This document shows, one piece after another, positions 3,227-19,123 of a stretch of DNA of 32,000 bases. The notes under the pieces are model-generated. The model had not been told where the DNA came from. It worked only from the letters and a program-made list of their open reading frames with translations, and searched no databases. The stretch is from positions 55,994 through 87,993 of the forward strand of contig NJBF01000013.1 of the NCBI GenBank assembly GCA_003144275.1, read 5' to 3'. Position numbers and translations under genes: made by a program. This stretch comes from Candidatus Heimdallarchaeota archaeon B3_Heim. Its GTDB lineage: Archaea > Asgardarchaeota > Heimdallarchaeia > Hodarchaeales > Hodarchaeaceae. How positions within the stretch are numbered: the stretch's first letter is position 1; each line of letters opens with the position of its first letter.

Positions 3227-3820
3227 ATGGCATCAACAGAGTCACGAACAAAAACCACGAATCCCCTAATTAATACCATATTAGTTATTTCTGTCGGTTT
3301 ATCAGCCTTAGAAATATCTCAGTTAATATTTGATCCTTCTAAAGCTGCAGCAATTACTTCTTTGAGATTTGATCATGTTTTTGCGAATATGTATCAAGGA
3401 ATGTTCTTGAGAGCAGAAACATTAACTTCATTCTGGTCGATATTAGTAGCATGGGCAATTTCAGGGATGGTAGCGGGTGTTAGAGCAAAACATGGCCTTT
3501 TAGGCGCAATAGCTGGATTCTTCGGAACTCTCTTAGGTTCAAGCCTTCTGCTGGTTGTTCATTTTGGAAGCGAGACAAATGTGACAATCGCAAATGAGTT
3601 CATTTTTGGTGTGGTTGCTTCCACCCTTGTCGCCTGTATCGCAGCATATGCAACAGGAACAGCTACAAAACCCAAGAAGGCATCTGTTAAATATAAAAAG
3701 ACAAGAAAAGCGTGGGATGCATCAAAAACAAAAGATGTATGGATGTGTAGCAGGTGTGGTCAGAAAATACCCCCAGGAGCATTTACCTGTCCCAATTGTG
3801 GGGAACCTGTTATCGAATAA
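3227..3820 (+). CDS. Membrane protein with 4-5 hydrophobic segments and C-terminal zinc ribbon
   Basis: Several Gly/Ala-rich TM-like stretches, a Lys-rich linker, then WMCSRCG-x9-CPNCG. Confidence 0.7.
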   Translation: MASTESRTKTTNPLINTILVISVGLSALEISQLIFDPSKAAAITSLRFDHVFANMYQGMFLRAETLTSFWSILVAWAISGMVAGVRAKHGLLGAIAGFFGTLLGSSLLLVVHFGSETNVTIANEFIFGVVASTLVACIAAYATGTATKPKKASVKYKKTRKAWDASKTKDVWMCSRCGQKIPPGAFTCPNCGEPVIE

Positions 3821-3854
3821 AAAGAAGGAAATTGATAAAAAAGAAGAATGTTAT

Positions 3855-11591: not shown

Positions 11592-12560
11592 TTAACTCTG
11601 TTTGAGGTCACGAGCATTCACACAAAATTCAGGAGCTTCTCCATTTAACACTAGTCGAACCTGTTCTGCAGTTATCCTTCCAGCGCGTTCTTGGGCCTCC
11701 TTAGTGGATGCAGCTACATGAGGAGAGACATAGAGATTGTCTAATTCAAATAATTTGTGTGTTTTGGCTGGTTCGACAGTAAAGACATCTAATGCTGCTC
11801 CAGCGATTTTTCCTTCTTTCAGGGCAACATATAGGGCCTCTTCATCCACAATACCCCCTCGAGCACAATTAACGAGATAAGCAGTAGGCTTCATGAGCTC
11901 AAACTCACGATCACTAACCATTCCACGAGTTTCATCATTGAGTAATGCATGGATTGTAATAAAATCAGATTTTTCAAATAATTCACCAAGATCGGTGATT
12001 TTATCTGCTCCGAATTTTAAGAAAAGTTCTGGAGGAAGATAAGGATCATAGATTAACGGTTTCATTCCAAAAGCGATCGCTCGTACGGCGACTTCAGAGC
12101 CAATCCTACCACAGCCTACAAAACCTAATTTTTTATTAAATAATTCCAACCCCATAAATTCTTTTTTAGGCCATTCACCTTTTTTGGTTTTAATGCTAGC
12201 TTGAACCACTTTACGCCCGAGCGCCAAAATAAGGGCAATTGTCATTTCTGCAACAGAGATTGTAGAAGCACGAGGGGAATTGACAACAAATATTCCTTTT
12301 TTTGTTGCTGTCGCTACATCAATATTGTCCACTCCAACACCTGCTCTTCCAATGACTTTCAATTGAGTACCCGCTTCAAAGACTTCACGGGAAATTTTAG
12401 TGGCACTTCGGACAATTACTGCATCATATTTGCCAATTTCCGATAGTAATTCTGCAGGAGAATAGTGTTGTTCTACAACATCAAATTCTTTTTTTAATTC
12501 CGCTACTGCAGAAGGTGCAATTGAATCTGCGATTAGGATCTTCATCATTACTGGTCTCAT
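11592..12560 (-). CDS. serA: D-3-phosphoglycerate dehydrogenase, short type lacking ACT/ASB domains (D-2-hydroxyacid dehydrogenase family), copy 1
   Basis: VRSATK, GRAGVGVDNID, GCGRIG Rossmann motif, NCARGG (Arg), DVFTVEP (Glu), SPHVAAST.EAQ (His). Confidence 0.85.
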   Translation of the reverse strand: MRPVMMKILIADSIAPSAVAELKKEFDVVEQHYSPAELLSEIGKYDAVIVRSATKISREVFEAGTQLKVIGRAGVGVDNIDVATATKKGIFVVNSPRASTISVAEMTIALILALGRKVVQASIKTKKGEWPKKEFMGLELFNKKLGFVGCGRIGSEVAVRAIAFGMKPLIYDPYLPPELFLKFGADKITDLGELFEKSDFITIHALLNDETRGMVSDREFELMKPTAYLVNCARGGIVDEEALYVALKEGKIAGAALDVFTVEPAKTHKLFELDNLYVSPHVAASTKEAQERAGRITAEQVRLVLNGEAPEFCVNARDLKQS

Positions 12561-12780
12561 CTCATTATCTGAAGATTTTTACATCTAGATAAATTTCGAT
12601 AATTCTCATATTATTATAGGAGATAATAAACAAATAAATAACAAATTATATGTCTATTGGGGACAAATTAAAAGATTAGTATTAAGGTTACTATTTAAGA
12701 AGAATCTCACGTCTAGATAAATCGGTTAATAGAAAAGGAAATAAGAAAAGGTTTCCTAAAATGATACTATTCTTGTCTCA

Positions 12781-14077: not shown

Positions 14078-14641
14078 ATGAGTTCATACAAGTATGTATC
14101 TAAATTCTGGAAAGAACGAACCGTTGAGTTCAAAAAGCTTAGGATTTCTAGGCTAGTTAAATGGCGGCGAGAGCCCAGTATCGTTCGCTTAGATCATTCT
14201 ACAAGAATTGATCGTGCCCGTGCTCTTGGATATCGCCGTAAAAAAGGATTTATTTTAGCCCGTGTCCGTGTCCCAAGAGGAGGACGCAGAAAATCTCGGC
14301 CTGTTCAAGGACGTCGATCTAAACGTATGGGTGTTAATCGAATTACCCCAAAAAAGTCACGTCAATGGATTGCGGAAGAAAGATGTGCAAGAAAATTCCC
14401 CAATCTTGAAGTTTTGAATAGTTATCCTGTATTATCAGATGGTCTTCATCGCTGGTTTGAAGTCATTTTAATTGATCCTAAAGCCCCTGAAATTCAATCA
14501 GACCATAAAATAAACTGGATCTGTAATCAGGGACATAAAGGTCGTGTCTTCAGAGGTAAAACATCTGCAGGGCAGAGAAGCCGTGGACTACATCGAAAGG
14601 GTAAAGGAAGCGAGCACACTCGTCCATCCTATGATAGATGA
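14078..14641 (+). CDS. rpl15e: 50S ribosomal protein L15e
   Basis: WRREPSIVR....TRIDRARALGY..KKG...ARVRV..GGR, AEERCARKFPNLEVLNSY, WFEVILIDP, GRVFRGKTSAG. GGAGGT SD at 14065-14070. Confidence 0.97.
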   Translation: MSSYKYVSKFWKERTVEFKKLRISRLVKWRREPSIVRLDHSTRIDRARALGYRRKKGFILARVRVPRGGRRKSRPVQGRRSKRMGVNRITPKKSRQWIAEERCARKFPNLEVLNSYPVLSDGLHRWFEVILIDPKAPEIQSDHKINWICNQGHKGRVFRGKTSAGQRSRGLHRKGKGSEHTRPSYDR

Positions 14642-14866: not shown

Positions 14867-15622
14867 ATGAAAATATATAGGAATTTGATTTGCGTGCCTC
14901 GTAAATTTGTTGATTATATTACTCCTGATACTAATTCCAATTTACATGCTATTCTTGAAGTTAGTAATCTTCTAGGGTTCTCTCAAATCTGGTTGGGCAG
15001 AGAGTGGAACACCAAACCAGTCGATTTAAACACACTTTCAAGTACTCATTCATTAGATCTCATTAATAGATTAGATATTGACTCCAGTAAGATACCAAAG
15101 GAAAAAATCGTTCAGATTCTCCGAAGAGAAAGAAGAAATTTTCCTATTATATCAGTGAAATGTTTTGATGCCGAAATCGCTGGTTGGGCTGCACAAGACA
15201 ATAGGATAGACATTTTATCATTTCCACCACATCAGATTGGAAAATTATTCACACGATCGATTGCAAAATTAATGATTAAGTTTGTAAAGTACCTTGAAAT
15301 TTCTCTAAGTGAGCTCTATCTATCCCCTGAACGTGTTCAAATTCCTACTTTTCGACATATTCAACAGGCTTTAGAAATTGCCCAGTTGAAATCAGTTCCA
15401 GTAATAATAAATTCTGGTGCTTCTATTCAAAGCAGTCTACGACCCCCTTGGGAATTAGCTTCGCTATCACAAATTCTCTTATCTACAAAAGAGACCCCCT
15501 TAGAATCAATCAGCACTATCCCAACTCAGCTACTCTCTCGTAATCAAGTAAAAATAAGTAACGACTACATAGCTCCTGGAATTTTTAAAGAACCAGAAAT
15601 CTATACTCAGGAGGAAGAATAG
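14867..15622 (+). CDS. rnp3: Ribonuclease P protein component 3 (Rpp30)
   Basis: PHP-like TIM-barrel pattern (AAQDNRIDIL, LEISL, VIINSGA....LRPPWELASL) and conserved position between rpl15e and rnp2. Confidence 0.8.
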   Translation: MKIYRNLICVPRKFVDYITPDTNSNLHAILEVSNLLGFSQIWLGREWNTKPVDLNTLSSTHSLDLINRLDIDSSKIPKEKIVQILRRERRNFPIISVKCFDAEIAGWAAQDNRIDILSFPPHQIGKLFTRSIAKLMIKFVKYLEISLSELYLSPERVQIPTFRHIQQALEIAQLKSVPVIINSGASIQSSLRPPWELASLSQILLSTKETPLESISTIPTQLLSRNQVKISNDYIAPGIFKEPEIYTQEEE

Positions 15623-15623
15623 A

Positions 15624-15992
15624 ATGAAAAAAGAGCGTGTACGTTATTTAACGGTTCGATTCATAGGTCAAAAAGATATTTCCGAGAAAGATGCATGGTT
15701 TATACTGGCTACTGAAATCAAAAGGCTTTTTGGAGTTACTGGAGCCGCAAAAGTAGGGCTATATCTATCGTATTTTGACCCTCAAAATCAAGGAGGAGTT
15801 TTTCGTATGTCACATCAATCTGTTCATTTGATACGAGCGAGCATTTGTTTTGTTCATTCTCATCACTCTCAACCGCTCTATGTTTACTCGGAATATTTAA
15901 CAGGTTCATTAAAAAAGGCTAAAGAATATTTATACAATAAAAACTACCACGATCGATATTATGTTCTTAAAAAGAATCTTGTAGGAAGTTAA
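15624..15992 (+). CDS. rnp2: Ribonuclease P protein component 2 (Pop5/Rpp14)
   Basis: ERVRYL..R, LFG..GAA, GGVFR.SH...IRASI, LTGSLKKAK. Confidence 0.85.
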   Translation: MKKERVRYLTVRFIGQKDISEKDAWFILATEIKRLFGVTGAAKVGLYLSYFDPQNQGGVFRMSHQSVHLIRASICFVHSHHSQPLYVYSEYLTGSLKKAKEYLYNKNYHDRYYVLKKNLVGS

Positions 15993-15997
15993 ATCTA

Positions 15998-16059
15998 GTC
16001 TCAATGATGAGAACTTACCATACGGTATTTGATGACGACACCGTCCCAGTCTGAGAGAC
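15998..16059 (+). ncRNA. Box C/D methylation-guide sRNA, predicted to target the 23S rRNA P-loop (Gm2251) and the helix 71 loop
   Basis: Terminal stem GTCTC (15998-16002)/GAGAC (16055-16059); C box ATGATGA (16004-16010); C' box TTGATGA (16029-16035); D box CTGA (16051-16054). D guide ACCGTCCCAGT (16040-16050) pairs with conserved ACUGGGGCGGU with one G-U, and the D+5 rule points to G2251 (E. coli numbering). D' guide GAACTTACC (16011-16019) is complementary to GGUAAGUUC (E. coli 1949-1957). The D' box is degenerate, possibly CGGT. Confidence 0.85.
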
Positions 16060-16140: not shown

Positions 16141-17025
16141 TTAGTTGCTTTGTGTGCGTGTTTTTCTTTGAGCACTGAAGCGTTCAAAGTCCTGCACTAT
16201 TAAGTTGGCAATTACTATGAGATGATTGTGTAGTGTCGTATGTCCATGATTCATGGATTCATTCAATAGCTTCAATTCCTTACTTTCATATATATATCTA
16301 TAGAGATTCCAGATATTTGTGTTAGTCACCTCCTGTATGTTCTTGGCTAATTTGATGAAGTTTATTTTTTGTAATGTCCGTTTGGCTTGCCAATTATATC
16401 GACTGATTACGGGAGAGCGAATCTTACGGGTGATACTTGCGGCTAATCGATCATAATATTGAAATTTTCTAATCAATGGGTCATTAGTTTTTTCGTGATG
16501 TTGTTGTAATCGTTTCACTAATGATTGATCTGTTAGTGGGGGTTCTTGATAGATTTTTGATTGATGTTTAGAGGTATGAAAAAAATCATGCAGCAGAGCG
16601 TATTTCAGTAGTTCCTGTTGTTCTATTGAGAGTTTTAATGGTAAACCTTTTCTGATCCTTAATTTTGGGGTTTTTATTTTCACTCGTGAATCTGTTGGTT
16701 TATTTTGGAATGAAATTCTTGTCCATTGAATCTCTCCTAGCCCCTCACCCTGTAATTTTCCTAGATGTGTGAGCTGAAGGAGAGTAATTAATTTGTGTTT
16801 TAGATTTTGCAGCGATTCATGGCGATATTCTAATGTCAGTTTTCCTAAATAACAGATGAATGAATACGGATACATTGGTTTGGCTGTTTGGATTTTTGTG
16901 TAATACCGTCGCCGTGGATTCTGGATCATAGCTTTACATCCGTGAATTTTAAAATGTGTTTTCTTTGTTATTATCGGTGTAATTAGTCGTCCTTCGAGAA
17001 GAAAACCGTTATTTCCAGAATTCAT
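16141..17025 (-). CDS. Cas5-like RAMP fused to a Cas10-type (circularly permuted) HD nuclease
   Basis: N-terminal ~100 aa: strand ITPI and G-rich loop LTHLGKLQGEGLGEIQW. C-terminal: ALLHDFF (H146-D147), QQHHE, YDRLAAS and displaced His motif TTLHNHL (H268). Confidence 0.7.
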   Translation of the reverse strand: MNSGNNGFLLEGRLITPIITKKTHFKIHGCKAMIQNPRRRYYTKIQTAKPMYPYSFICYLGKLTLEYRHESLQNLKHKLITLLQLTHLGKLQGEGLGEIQWTRISFQNKPTDSRVKIKTPKLRIRKGLPLKLSIEQQELLKYALLHDFFHTSKHQSKIYQEPPLTDQSLVKRLQQHHEKTNDPLIRKFQYYDRLAASITRKIRSPVISRYNWQAKRTLQKINFIKLAKNIQEVTNTNIWNLYRYIYESKELKLLNESMNHGHTTLHNHLIVIANLIVQDFERFSAQRKTRTQSN

Positions 17026-17037
17026 CCTTTAATACAC

Positions 17038-17937
17038 CTATTTTGGAGACTCTTGTGATTTTTTTACATATTTTGTCCATTCTGCTATAGAATTCAGAAA
17101 TTCTTGTGATAATGGGGTTTCTGATATTTGCTCTTCTATTTTAAATTCCTGATTATCGCCTAATATCGGTTTGCGGGTCATGATTCTATCAACCAATGTC
17201 AGTGATTGAACTTCGAGTTGGGCATAACCCGCATTGTATCCTCGTCCTAATTTCTGCATATACATTGCTGATTCAATTAGTAATCCAAGTTCCGCAAGTG
17301 AACATTTAGAAACATCAATTTCAAACTCGAATTCTCCTGCAAAGTACCGTTCTCCAAAGTCTTGAATTGCTCCTCCATCATATGATAATGCTACTCGTTT
17401 TTCTGTCGCAATATGGACATTCTGTAACTTATACTTACTTTGAAAGGTTTTTTGACTAATATTAGCTATGGGGTTTGCAGATACTCGTATTTTACTTGTA
17501 TGTCTCTTAGAACCGAACACTGCATGAACAATACACTCGTTCGATTCAGTACAACTTCCTATCAAATGAAAACCATTTGGAAGTAATGATTTACCCTTTC
17601 GATCAGTTTCCTTATCAGATGTATGACATACTTCTAGTCCTCGTTCTTTACAATGATACATTACTTGATGACGTAATGCTCCTCTTAACCCTTTAATGAA
17701 ATACGCAGTTGCTGAGCTTTCCTTATATTCCTTTCCATATTTATATTTATAGGGAAATGTCCATAATTTTAAAAAGTGTGCTTGATTAGATCCTGGAATA
17801 GCACCATTCAAAGGTTTGCAGATTGATGTAAACACTTTAACTTTCAAAATCTTGCTATCAATAGCGATTTGGACATCATCAAGAATCCCAAGCAAAGATT
17901 CAGATTTAAGACTTGATCTAGAAACGCTTTTTGCCAT
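17038..17937 (-). CDS. cas7: Cas7-family RAMP (Csm3/Csf2-like backbone subunit)
   Basis: IKGLRGALRH, Cys cluster ending ECIVHAVFGS, KIRVS, YFAGEFEFEI, ELGLL and C-terminal G-rich loop LGRGYNAGYAQLEV. Confidence 0.8.
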   Translation of the reverse strand: MAKSVSRSSLKSESLLGILDDVQIAIDSKILKVKVFTSICKPLNGAIPGSNQAHFLKLWTFPYKYKYGKEYKESSATAYFIKGLRGALRHQVMYHCKERGLEVCHTSDKETDRKGKSLLPNGFHLIGSCTESNECIVHAVFGSKRHTSKIRVSANPIANISQKTFQSKYKLQNVHIATEKRVALSYDGGAIQDFGERYFAGEFEFEIDVSKCSLAELGLLIESAMYMQKLGRGYNAGYAQLEVQSLTLVDRIMTRKPILGDNQEFKIEEQISETPLSQEFLNSIAEWTKYVKKSQESPK

Positions 17938-18665
17938 TATTTACATGCCTCCTCTTTCTTAGGCTTGTTTGCTGACGAATGCTTTTTCGACTGGACACGA
18001 TAGCAACGCTTTTGGAAAGCTTTCTGTTGAATCGTGGGAGCCAGGTACTTATGATTAGTTTTCAAGTCTTGAGGGACAATGAATAATCGTGTCCTATGAG
18101 GCATAAGGTAAGTAAGCCATTCCTCTGCAGGCATCAATAACCGCTCGTTTGTTGATACTAAGAGGTCTATAAATTGAGCACGGCAAAGATCGATGATCTC
18201 ATAGTGGAGTAAATCAGCGACATAATCCCAAAGCCTAACGCCTTCTAATCCTAAGTGCTCTAAGTGCCTAATAAGAGAGGGAGAATCACAGCCAATATCT
18301 AGTAACACTCTCCGAGGTCTTGGATTTGCTTTCTTACCTTTATATATAGATGAATCAGGAATCTTGTTTTTAATTGTGGAAACTAGAATCCCCCCACGAA
18401 TACTTTTGATCGCTAGAACAGCATTAATGATTGAATGATCAACCCAAAATACAAAAGTATGACGTAAACTACGGGTGGGTTTCGAGAAAAGAAGGCCTTG
18501 ATTTTTCCACGAATGTATTTGCTGAAGAATAGATAGATTTTGAGTAACAATTGAAATCATTTCATTTAAAGAATAATAACCAAGAATCCAATCATTTAAC
18601 TGAAATTGGCATTCATAGAAAGAGGAATTGGGAGAATTAAGCATTTTTCCATCACCAAAGGTCAA
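17937..18665 (-). CDS. Two-domain protein with C-terminal PIN-like (DUF5615/Mut7-C-like) domain
   Basis: VLLDIGC..LIRHLEHLG and EII..C....DLLVSTNERL resemble the DUF5615/Mut7-C pattern, but some acidic residues are substituted. Stop overlaps the cas7 start (TAATG). True start may be ATG at 18644 (GGTGAT upstream). Confidence 0.45.
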   Translation of the reverse strand: MTFGDGKMLNSPNSSFYECQFQLNDWILGYYSLNEMISIVTQNLSILQQIHSWKNQGLLFSKPTRSLRHTFVFWVDHSIINAVLAIKSIRGGILVSTIKNKIPDSSIYKGKKANPRPRRVLLDIGCDSPSLIRHLEHLGLEGVRLWDYVADLLHYEIIDLCRAQFIDLLVSTNERLLMPAEEWLTYLMPHRTRLFIVPQDLKTNHKYLAPTIQQKAFQKRCYRVQSKKHSSANKPKKEEACK

Positions 18666-19123
18666 CGAATCACCTCCTCGGTTTTAGCTGCTAAGGAAAA
18701 ATATCGTTGAAGATGCTCACAAAGTGCCTGTTGAGAAAAAAAGATATGATCCACCGAAGGCATGAGACGAATTAGAGTATAGGTTAGGGGTTCCAGAATA
18801 GGAGAATGAGTTTCGAAAAGGACCCACATTGTGAGAGAAGAATAATGCTTTTTCAATTGAAGACTTTTAGCTTCGAGAGAAACAGCTTTATTGCGAAACG
18901 CAACATAATATTTTTCCATGCTAGAAAAAGAGCACTCTAAGATCGTCTGTTGAGGGAGAAAAAAGTCAACAATATAGTGACGATCAGGTAAAGAAAAAAT
19001 CTTTTGAAATTCAAAGGGGATATTCTCAGAGTGCATTAGTTGTTTTAGTTGTAACTCTTGCCAGGTAGTACAAGAGGAACGAGGAGAAAAATTTTTATTT
19101 ATTTGGGATTCCATACAATACAA
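18662..19123 (-). CDS. PD-(D/E)xK nuclease, DUF559/Vsr-like
   Basis: TWQE.QL..LM....IPFEFQK......YIVDFF.....ILE matches the DUF559/very-short-patch pattern. Stop overlaps or abuts the next ORF. Confidence 0.65.
   Translation of the reverse strand: MYCMESQINKNFSPRSSCTTWQELQLKQLMHSENIPFEFQKIFSLPDRHYIVDFFLPQQTILECSFSSMEKYYVAFRNKAVSLEAKSLQLKKHYSSLTMWVLFETHSPILEPLTYTLIRLMPSVDHIFFSQQALCEHLQRYFSLAAKTEEVIR

Follow-up and report, generated by a model that had tools for sequence, protein, structure and literature searches.

Immediately behind rnp2, the 32,000-nucleotide stretch of DNA analysed in this study (the window) contains a compact element of 62 nucleotides, which raises the question of whether it encodes a functional RNA and, if so, on which target this RNA would act. 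A first-pass annotation, made from the letters of the window, had described the element as a box C/D sRNA with a 5-bp terminal stem, boxes C, C' and D and two guides, and each of these features was located in the sequence as described. The element occupies positions 15998–16059 of the forward strand, beginning 5 nucleotides past the rnp2 stop codon TAA (15990–15992), within the following arrangement:

14078–14641, forward strand: rpl15e, a conserved upstream neighbour
14867–15622, forward strand: rnp3, coding for the p30 subunit of RNase P and ending 1 nucleotide before rnp2
15624–15992, forward strand: rnp2, coding for an RNase P protein of the Rpp14/Pop5 family, whose transcript probably carries the sRNA
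15998–16059, forward strand: box C/D sRNA gene of 62 nucleotides, with ends inferred from the terminal stem
15998–16002, forward strand: 5' arm of the terminal stem, GTCTC, pairing with 16055–16059 as judged by covariation and fold
16004–16010, forward strand: box C, ATGATGA, unchanged throughout the 19 homologues
16011–16022, forward strand: D' guide of 12 nucleotides, variable and probably an orphan, with a 9-nucleotide match to 23S helix 71 that is at chance level
16023–16026, forward strand: degenerate box D', CGGT (15 of 19 homologues have CTGA or CCGA in this column)
16029–16035, forward strand: box C', TTGATGA, degenerate in many homologues
16036–16050, forward strand: the whole D guide
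16040–16050, forward strand: segment of the D guide that pairs with positions 2247–2257 of the 23S P-loop, C16046 (+5) being paired with G2251
16051–16054, forward strand: box D, CTGA, invariant
16055–16059, forward strand: 3' arm of the terminal stem, GAGAC, with covariation

The organization of this element corresponds to that of archaeal box C/D sRNAs, with a box C of the form RUGAUGA near the 5' end, a box D (CUGA) near the 3' end and a terminal stem that closes the C/D kink-turn. It also shows, though in degenerate form, the internal boxes D' and C', guides of about 12 nucleotides and a size within the range of 50–70 nucleotides. A chance resemblance without any functional RNA would nevertheless be compatible with several properties of the locus: a loose C...D pattern alone occurs five times in the window compared to 2.85 expected occurrences and is thus not above chance, the z-score of the fold is only –1.4, and a search of Rfam retrieves no family at its gathering score, the weak matches at the locus being nearly all to box C/D families with sR22 as the best archaeal one. 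Since the box pattern is not rare and the fold unremarkable, we have used the comparison with relatives as main evidence.

The nearest relatives of the Rnp2 protein, with sequence identities of 75–96%, are found in Heimdallarchaeota and Hodarchaeota MAGs, which defines the host as a Hodarchaeales-type Asgard archaeon, in line with the Asgard origin suspected from the window. Rnp2 is present in 19 of 21 genomes of the same genus, and in 18 of these 19 the sRNA follows directly behind its gene, while in the remaining one the contig stops after rnp2 and the guide is located on a different contig. The synteny behind rnp2 that had been suggested as a check thus holds across the genus, in 19 genomes containing both Rnp2 and the guide. 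In the alignment of these 19 sequences, no change affects box C, box D or the guide core CCGUCCCAG; the core CCGTCCCAG is invariant and flanked by variable positions, and the D' guide is variable too. The 5-bp terminal stem is paired in 98.9% of all cells of the alignment, with compensatory exchanges in four of its five pairs, amounting to 23 compensatory cells. None of 500 shuffles reaches this degree of pairing, a test that is inflated by the relatedness of the sequences, and controls with a slid register are paired to 37–70%. Despite this inflation, selection on the stem is evident from the slid controls together with the 23 compensatory cells. By its synteny, the constancy of its guide core and of boxes C and D and its covarying stem, the whole element is thus far above chance, and the stem covariation in practice refutes a fortuitous resemblance, whose probability we consider negligible. 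The window almost certainly encodes at positions 15998–16059 a genuine small guide RNA of an Asgard archaeon which, with boxes, synteny, guide core and stem all in agreement, belongs to the archaeal box C/D sRNAs and works like them.

For the identification of its target, we had to take into account that the 23S rRNA gene of the source genome is only partly assembled, with its first ~1190 nucleotides on contig C88 and several fragments of ~300 nucleotides from its 3' end, neither of which contains the P-loop. The sequences of the P-loop and helix 71 were therefore taken from relatives. As reference served a 23S gene of the same genus (L047), which is 94% identical to the fragment of the source genome across 124 nucleotides of overlap and carries the exact target of the D guide. 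The E. coli numbers of G2251 and G1950 were verified on the E. coli 23S gene, with a strain offset of 2 nucleotides calibrated on C1962. [quoted passage not shown] In a composite of 16S and 23S rRNA of the genus, the P-loop is the best site of this guide, with a score of 10.5 that is followed by 7.0 for the next site and matched by 1.2% of shuffled guides. Thirteen genus-like metagenomic 23S genes reach the P-loop, eight with the exact target and five with the A–U pair at the end of the duplex exchanged to G–C; the ones nearest to the 5' fragment of the source genome (90–91%) carry the exact target. Guide and target may also covary at the ends of the duplex, where two genomes have a G at +11 of the guide and some 23S genes have C2257; the two genomes themselves lack the P-loop, and their nearest 23S gene is only 87% identical over 366 nucleotides. 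A full 23S gene assigned to a same-genus bin (L036, on contig C57 of genome G001) was excluded, as it is only 64–65% identical to the 23S of the genus and appears as probable contaminant of the bin.

The source genome (G000) also contains at least four diverged copies of ~300 nucleotides of the 23S 3' end, from the sarcin–ricin loop onward, which are flanked by non-rRNA DNA (contig C9, ~20–330; contig C65, near 12430–12730, 3500–3825 and 1–120). The same fragment is present in several genomes of the genus, and one possible origin of these copies is the duplication of attachment sites by mobile elements with a 23S gene as integration target.

Owing to the G–U pair at +7, the duplex with the P-loop misses the strict criterion of nine continuous Watson–Crick pairs applied in a study of Pyrobaculum sRNAs (PMC6009581), and the non-canonical D' box may lower the activity of the sRNA. 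It would thus be conceivable that the RNA chaperones the folding of the P-loop and methylates little or nothing, with G2251 being either unmodified or modified by another enzyme. Conserved guide–target pairs that do not methylate are known from Pyrobaculum (PMC6009581), and both the conserved G–U pair within the duplex and the degenerate C'/D' motif would be in accord with such a role. Against it stands the C–G pair at +5, which is invariant in 19 of 19 homologues and kept in exact register with the invariant box D, as well as the failure to find RlmB in the genome, and we thus regard a chaperone with little or no methylation as improbable. The preferred assignment, as an archaeal box C/D guide that would direct the methylation of G2251 with one working guide, has in our view a high probability on the basis of boxes, register and conservation.

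The proteins required for such a function are encoded in the host. Fibrillarin and Nop5 genes are adjacent on contig C57 of the source genome, and two genes belong to the L7Ae family (PF01248), one as L7Ae and the other as L30e, which completes the set of proteins expected for archaeal box C/D sRNAs. The first-pass annotation had also asked whether an RlmB/SpoU enzyme is encoded, and no stand-alone RlmB was found: the sole SpoU-family gene is of the TrmJ type (206 bits at a cut-off of 167, compared to 39 bits at a cut-off of 160 for the RlmB model), and no RlmB scores above cut-off in the source genome, which is 94% complete. Among 400 Asgard genomes, not one passes the RlmB cut-off. Full-length RlmB-like SpoU genes with scores of 130–153 bits, compared to the cut-off of 160, are found in 19 of 135 genomes of one large Asgard family (f20, L121–L125), where two exact guide patterns, which miss variants, gave only two matches each. 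Since patterns of such strictness do not establish that a guide is absent, we have not taken these data to mean that guide and RlmB exclude one another in Asgard archaea.

The same genome offers further observations on rRNA methylation. An RlmE/FtsJ-like gene is located on the contig of the window (C21, 3633–4169, E = 2e-40), and U2552 in the A-loop is thus probably methylated by a stand-alone enzyme in the source organism. A strict scan for box C/D elements yields 16 candidates in the genome and 4 in its reversed sequence, and the repertoire of C/D sRNAs looks small by this measure. Two more candidates are found near position 80796 of contig C88 and near position 175777 of contig C57, both on the reverse strand, the former with a 9-bp match of its D guide to the helix 90 region of the 23S of the genus.

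We then turn to the second guide, which had been proposed to direct methylation of G1950 in helix 71. The D' guide indeed forms nine continuous Watson–Crick pairs with helix 71 of the genus 23S, its best rRNA site, with +5 on G1950; helix 71 is a known hotspot of methylation (PMC4644070), and three further homologues pair with this site over 6–7 continuous nucleotides. An sRNA with two guides, which would methylate both G2251 and G1950, could thus be envisaged. However, the pairing extends only from +4 to +12 and leaves +2 and +3 mismatched, next to a box D' that reads CGGU, and 11% of shuffled D' guides score equally well (p = 0.11), which is not above chance. The match is confined to the window and its nearest relative and is broken in the next two relatives (G003 and G020). 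At the level of the family, 17 distinct D' guides reveal no rRNA site above a column-shuffled control (top score 6.15, compared to control tops of 5.6–6.8), with helix 71 ranking seventh among the sites. The proposed G1950 target is thus not sustained, and with no credible conserved second target we consider it unlikely that the sRNA is a dual guide. Alternative targets of the D' guide with a shared GGUA core, namely G2239 just upstream of the P-loop, a site in domain II near E. coli G1187 and sites in 16S rRNA, were dropped as none exceeds the shuffled control, and a comparison with 22 assembled tRNAs gave scores of at most 7.5 and nothing better. A residual AC at positions +6/+5 of the D' guide is conserved and may be the relic of a former target.

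The position of the D' guide provides a context for its variability. Translation of rnp2 ends inside box C, the D' guide or box D' in 16 of the 19 genomes, and the D' guide in many of them therefore also encodes the last residues of Rnp2. An overlap with an upstream stop codon is found for 25% of archaeal sRNA genes (PMC7994747), and in Pyrobaculum 61% of guides overlapping the 3' end of an open reading frame are orphans without targets (PMC6009581). The drift of its sequence, the degenerate D' box in the window and the overlap with the coding tail of Rnp2 in most relatives all indicate that the D' guide is probably an orphan. The genus thus illustrates how a second guide drifts alongside an overlap with a coding 3' end.

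The gene order rpl15e–rnp3–rnp2–sRNA is conserved in the genus, and co-transcription of the sRNA with all three genes had been proposed. From the gap of 1 nucleotide between rnp3 and rnp2 and an sRNA that abuts or overlaps rnp2, including the stop-codon overlap in 16 of 19 genomes, the sRNA would very likely be transcribed together with rnp3 and rnp2. A shared transcript with rpl15e would be less certain, as about 225 nucleotides with a long T tract separate it from rnp3 in the window. A scan for sigma-70 promoters, which is not meaningful for an archaeon, remained at chance level. On the reverse strand, a cluster of four genes (window positions 16141–19123) converges on the sRNA; this cluster is not found beside the sRNA in relatives. 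One of them, an ORF of 299 residues (17038–17937), shows weak similarity to RAMP/Csm3 proteins (Pfam E = 1e-4, PADLOC E = 1e-5), and the other three yielded no matches. The cluster may represent a Cas7 module of minimal, type III-like form, or else a remnant.

The fixed location at or across the rnp2 stop codon throughout the genus could also reflect a function in cis, where the element would mainly serve as a kink-turn that binds L7Ae behind the coding part of the mRNA for the RNase P proteins, stabilizing or regulating this message without being released as a guide. In archaea, L7Ae is also a subunit of RNase P, in accord with such a role. A role in cis would, however, leave the invariant 11-nucleotide complement of the P-loop in its N+5 register unexplained, and other Asgard families carry the guide on the strand opposite to rnp2 (L023 and L116) or behind unrelated genes. 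As main function of the element we thus deem it highly improbable, while a side role in cis beside its function as a guide would be conceivable.

The assignment of the element as a G2251 guide can be compared to known systems. In E. coli, Gm2251 is made by RlmB (PMC11542601), which generates the same product but is a stand-alone SPOUT protein, whose orthologue was not found in the source genome. In yeast, the equivalent Gm2619 is guided by snR67 (PMC11121408), as stated in the first-pass annotation. In archaea, Gm at the equivalent position was seen by cryo-EM in Methanosarcina acetivorans (PMC12605026), and its sRNA-guided methylation was predicted in three archaea (Dennis et al., 2015, PMC4644070), at alignment position G2520, which corresponds to E. 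coli G2251, with Methanopyrus sR13 and Thermoproteus sR7 contained in the table of targets (PMC4644070). Both share the target nucleotide and the N+5 logic with the window sRNA, but each of them has two guides, the other one directed to a target nearby (G2490 and U2544), whereas the window sRNA has no credible second target. A Haloarcula Gm1950 equated with E. coli Gm2251 in a review (PMC11542601) was not used as precedent, since another paper places it at position 1909 of E. coli, in helix 69 (PMC2584109).

The closest resemblance is found in Pyrobaculum calidifontis sR36 and Thermoproteus tenax sR107, two C/D sRNAs detected by RNA-seq (PMC4644070, Additional file 1), which share with the window sRNA an identical run of 14 nucleotides comprising the D-guide core CCGTCCCAGT and CTGA, the same D position, the same G–U pair and a similar size, but contain an unrelated D' guide and reside in Thermoproteales. 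As the guide is dictated by its target, its sequence would be compatible with either shared ancestry or convergence. Ignicoccus sR410 and Sulfolobus sR110 carry a P-loop guide in the D' position (PMC4644070), the former with the same core and Sulfolobus acidocaldarius Sac-sR110 with a near-identical one. In Rfam, the best archaeal match, sR22 (RF01275), contains a D guide CCGUUCCAGU followed by CUGA in the same position and a different D' half, and with 21.4 bits compared to a gathering score of 40 the window sRNA falls outside this family. The initial description of the P-loop methylation as eukaryote-style is overstated, as the same guide core has been published in non-Asgard archaea (PMC4644070); the RNA-guided mechanism is archaeal as much as eukaryotic. 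Among eukaryotic guides, snR67 (Gm2619), SNORD31/U31 (Gm4196) and Giardia GlsR4 share the target of the window sRNA. Their similarity in Rfam is mediated by the guide, with little free sequence beyond it (GlsR4, 19.3 bits at a cut-off of 70; SNORD31, 15.8 at 40), and the GlsR4 model has the guide after box C, in the D' position, with a C where the window sRNA has a U. The letters in common with SNORD31, snR67 and GlsR4 are those that the target prescribes, and orthology to these RNAs would thus be conjectural. A direct descent of these eukaryotic guides from an Asgard P-loop guide by unbroken inheritance since before eukaryotes arose, with the guide moving between D' and D, is a tentative proposal that we rather doubt.

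Within Asgard archaea, the guide followed by CTGA was detected in 19 of 21 genomes of the genus, in both genomes of a sister family and in 22 of 31 genomes of another Heimdallarchaeia family, with an exact-pattern search that misses variants, families without matches being those where nothing was found with this query. A control with the reversed pattern gave zero matches in the best-sampled genomes of those families, and inspection revealed proper C/D architecture in them and in several more distant Asgard families. Outside the two families of the order of the host, the P-loop guide mostly occupies the D' position. Of five Heimdallarchaeia genomes in which a 23S gene of their own is available, the partner D guide has a shared site at U2460 in helix 89, its best site in three and its second-best in two. 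An initial assignment of this partner to the second site of snR67 (Um2724) was dropped, as it maps to U2460. Like Sac-sR110 and sR410, these widespread Asgard sRNAs with P-loop and helix-89 guides hold the P-loop guide in D', whereas the genus of the window has it in D and is missing the helix-89 guide, which sets the window sRNA apart from the Sac-sR110 type. In five sequences of another family (f25, L111–L115), the P-loop guide is combined with a different second guide, which by eye appears able to pair with the 3' strand of helix 74. Two further Asgard families (L023 and L116) have the P-loop sRNA just behind rnp2 on the opposite strand, with the guide in D', and in family f3 it is found 2–7 kb from rnp2; the P-loop sRNA may thus have been associated with the region of the RNase P gene for a long time.

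Our data suggest a mechanism in which the sRNA would be transcribed as 3' tail of the rnp3–rnp2 message and trimmed to about 62 nucleotides. By analogy to other members of the family, the 5-bp stem would close boxes C and D into a kink-turn that binds L7Ae and subsequently Nop5 and fibrillarin. The D guide would then pair with the P-loop (E. coli 2247–2257) in the pre-rRNA, in the manner found with the 23S of the same genus, and by the N+5 rule fibrillarin would methylate the ribose of G2251, opposite the fifth base before box D, with the D' half staying without target.

A search of the literature found no paper on Asgard C/D guide RNAs, and the family of P-loop guides thus seems undescribed in print for this lineage. 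Since mechanism, target and guide sequence are already known from other archaea, the sRNA is an ordinary new example that would not surprise a specialist. It fills a gap in annotation, as Hodarchaeales would most likely install the near-universal Gm2251 by a guide RNA and fibrillarin instead of RlmB. It has often been proposed that, among archaea, Hodarchaeales are the nearest to eukaryotes, and the finding fits RNA-guided methylation of the P-loop as an old archaeal trait that was inherited by eukaryotes.
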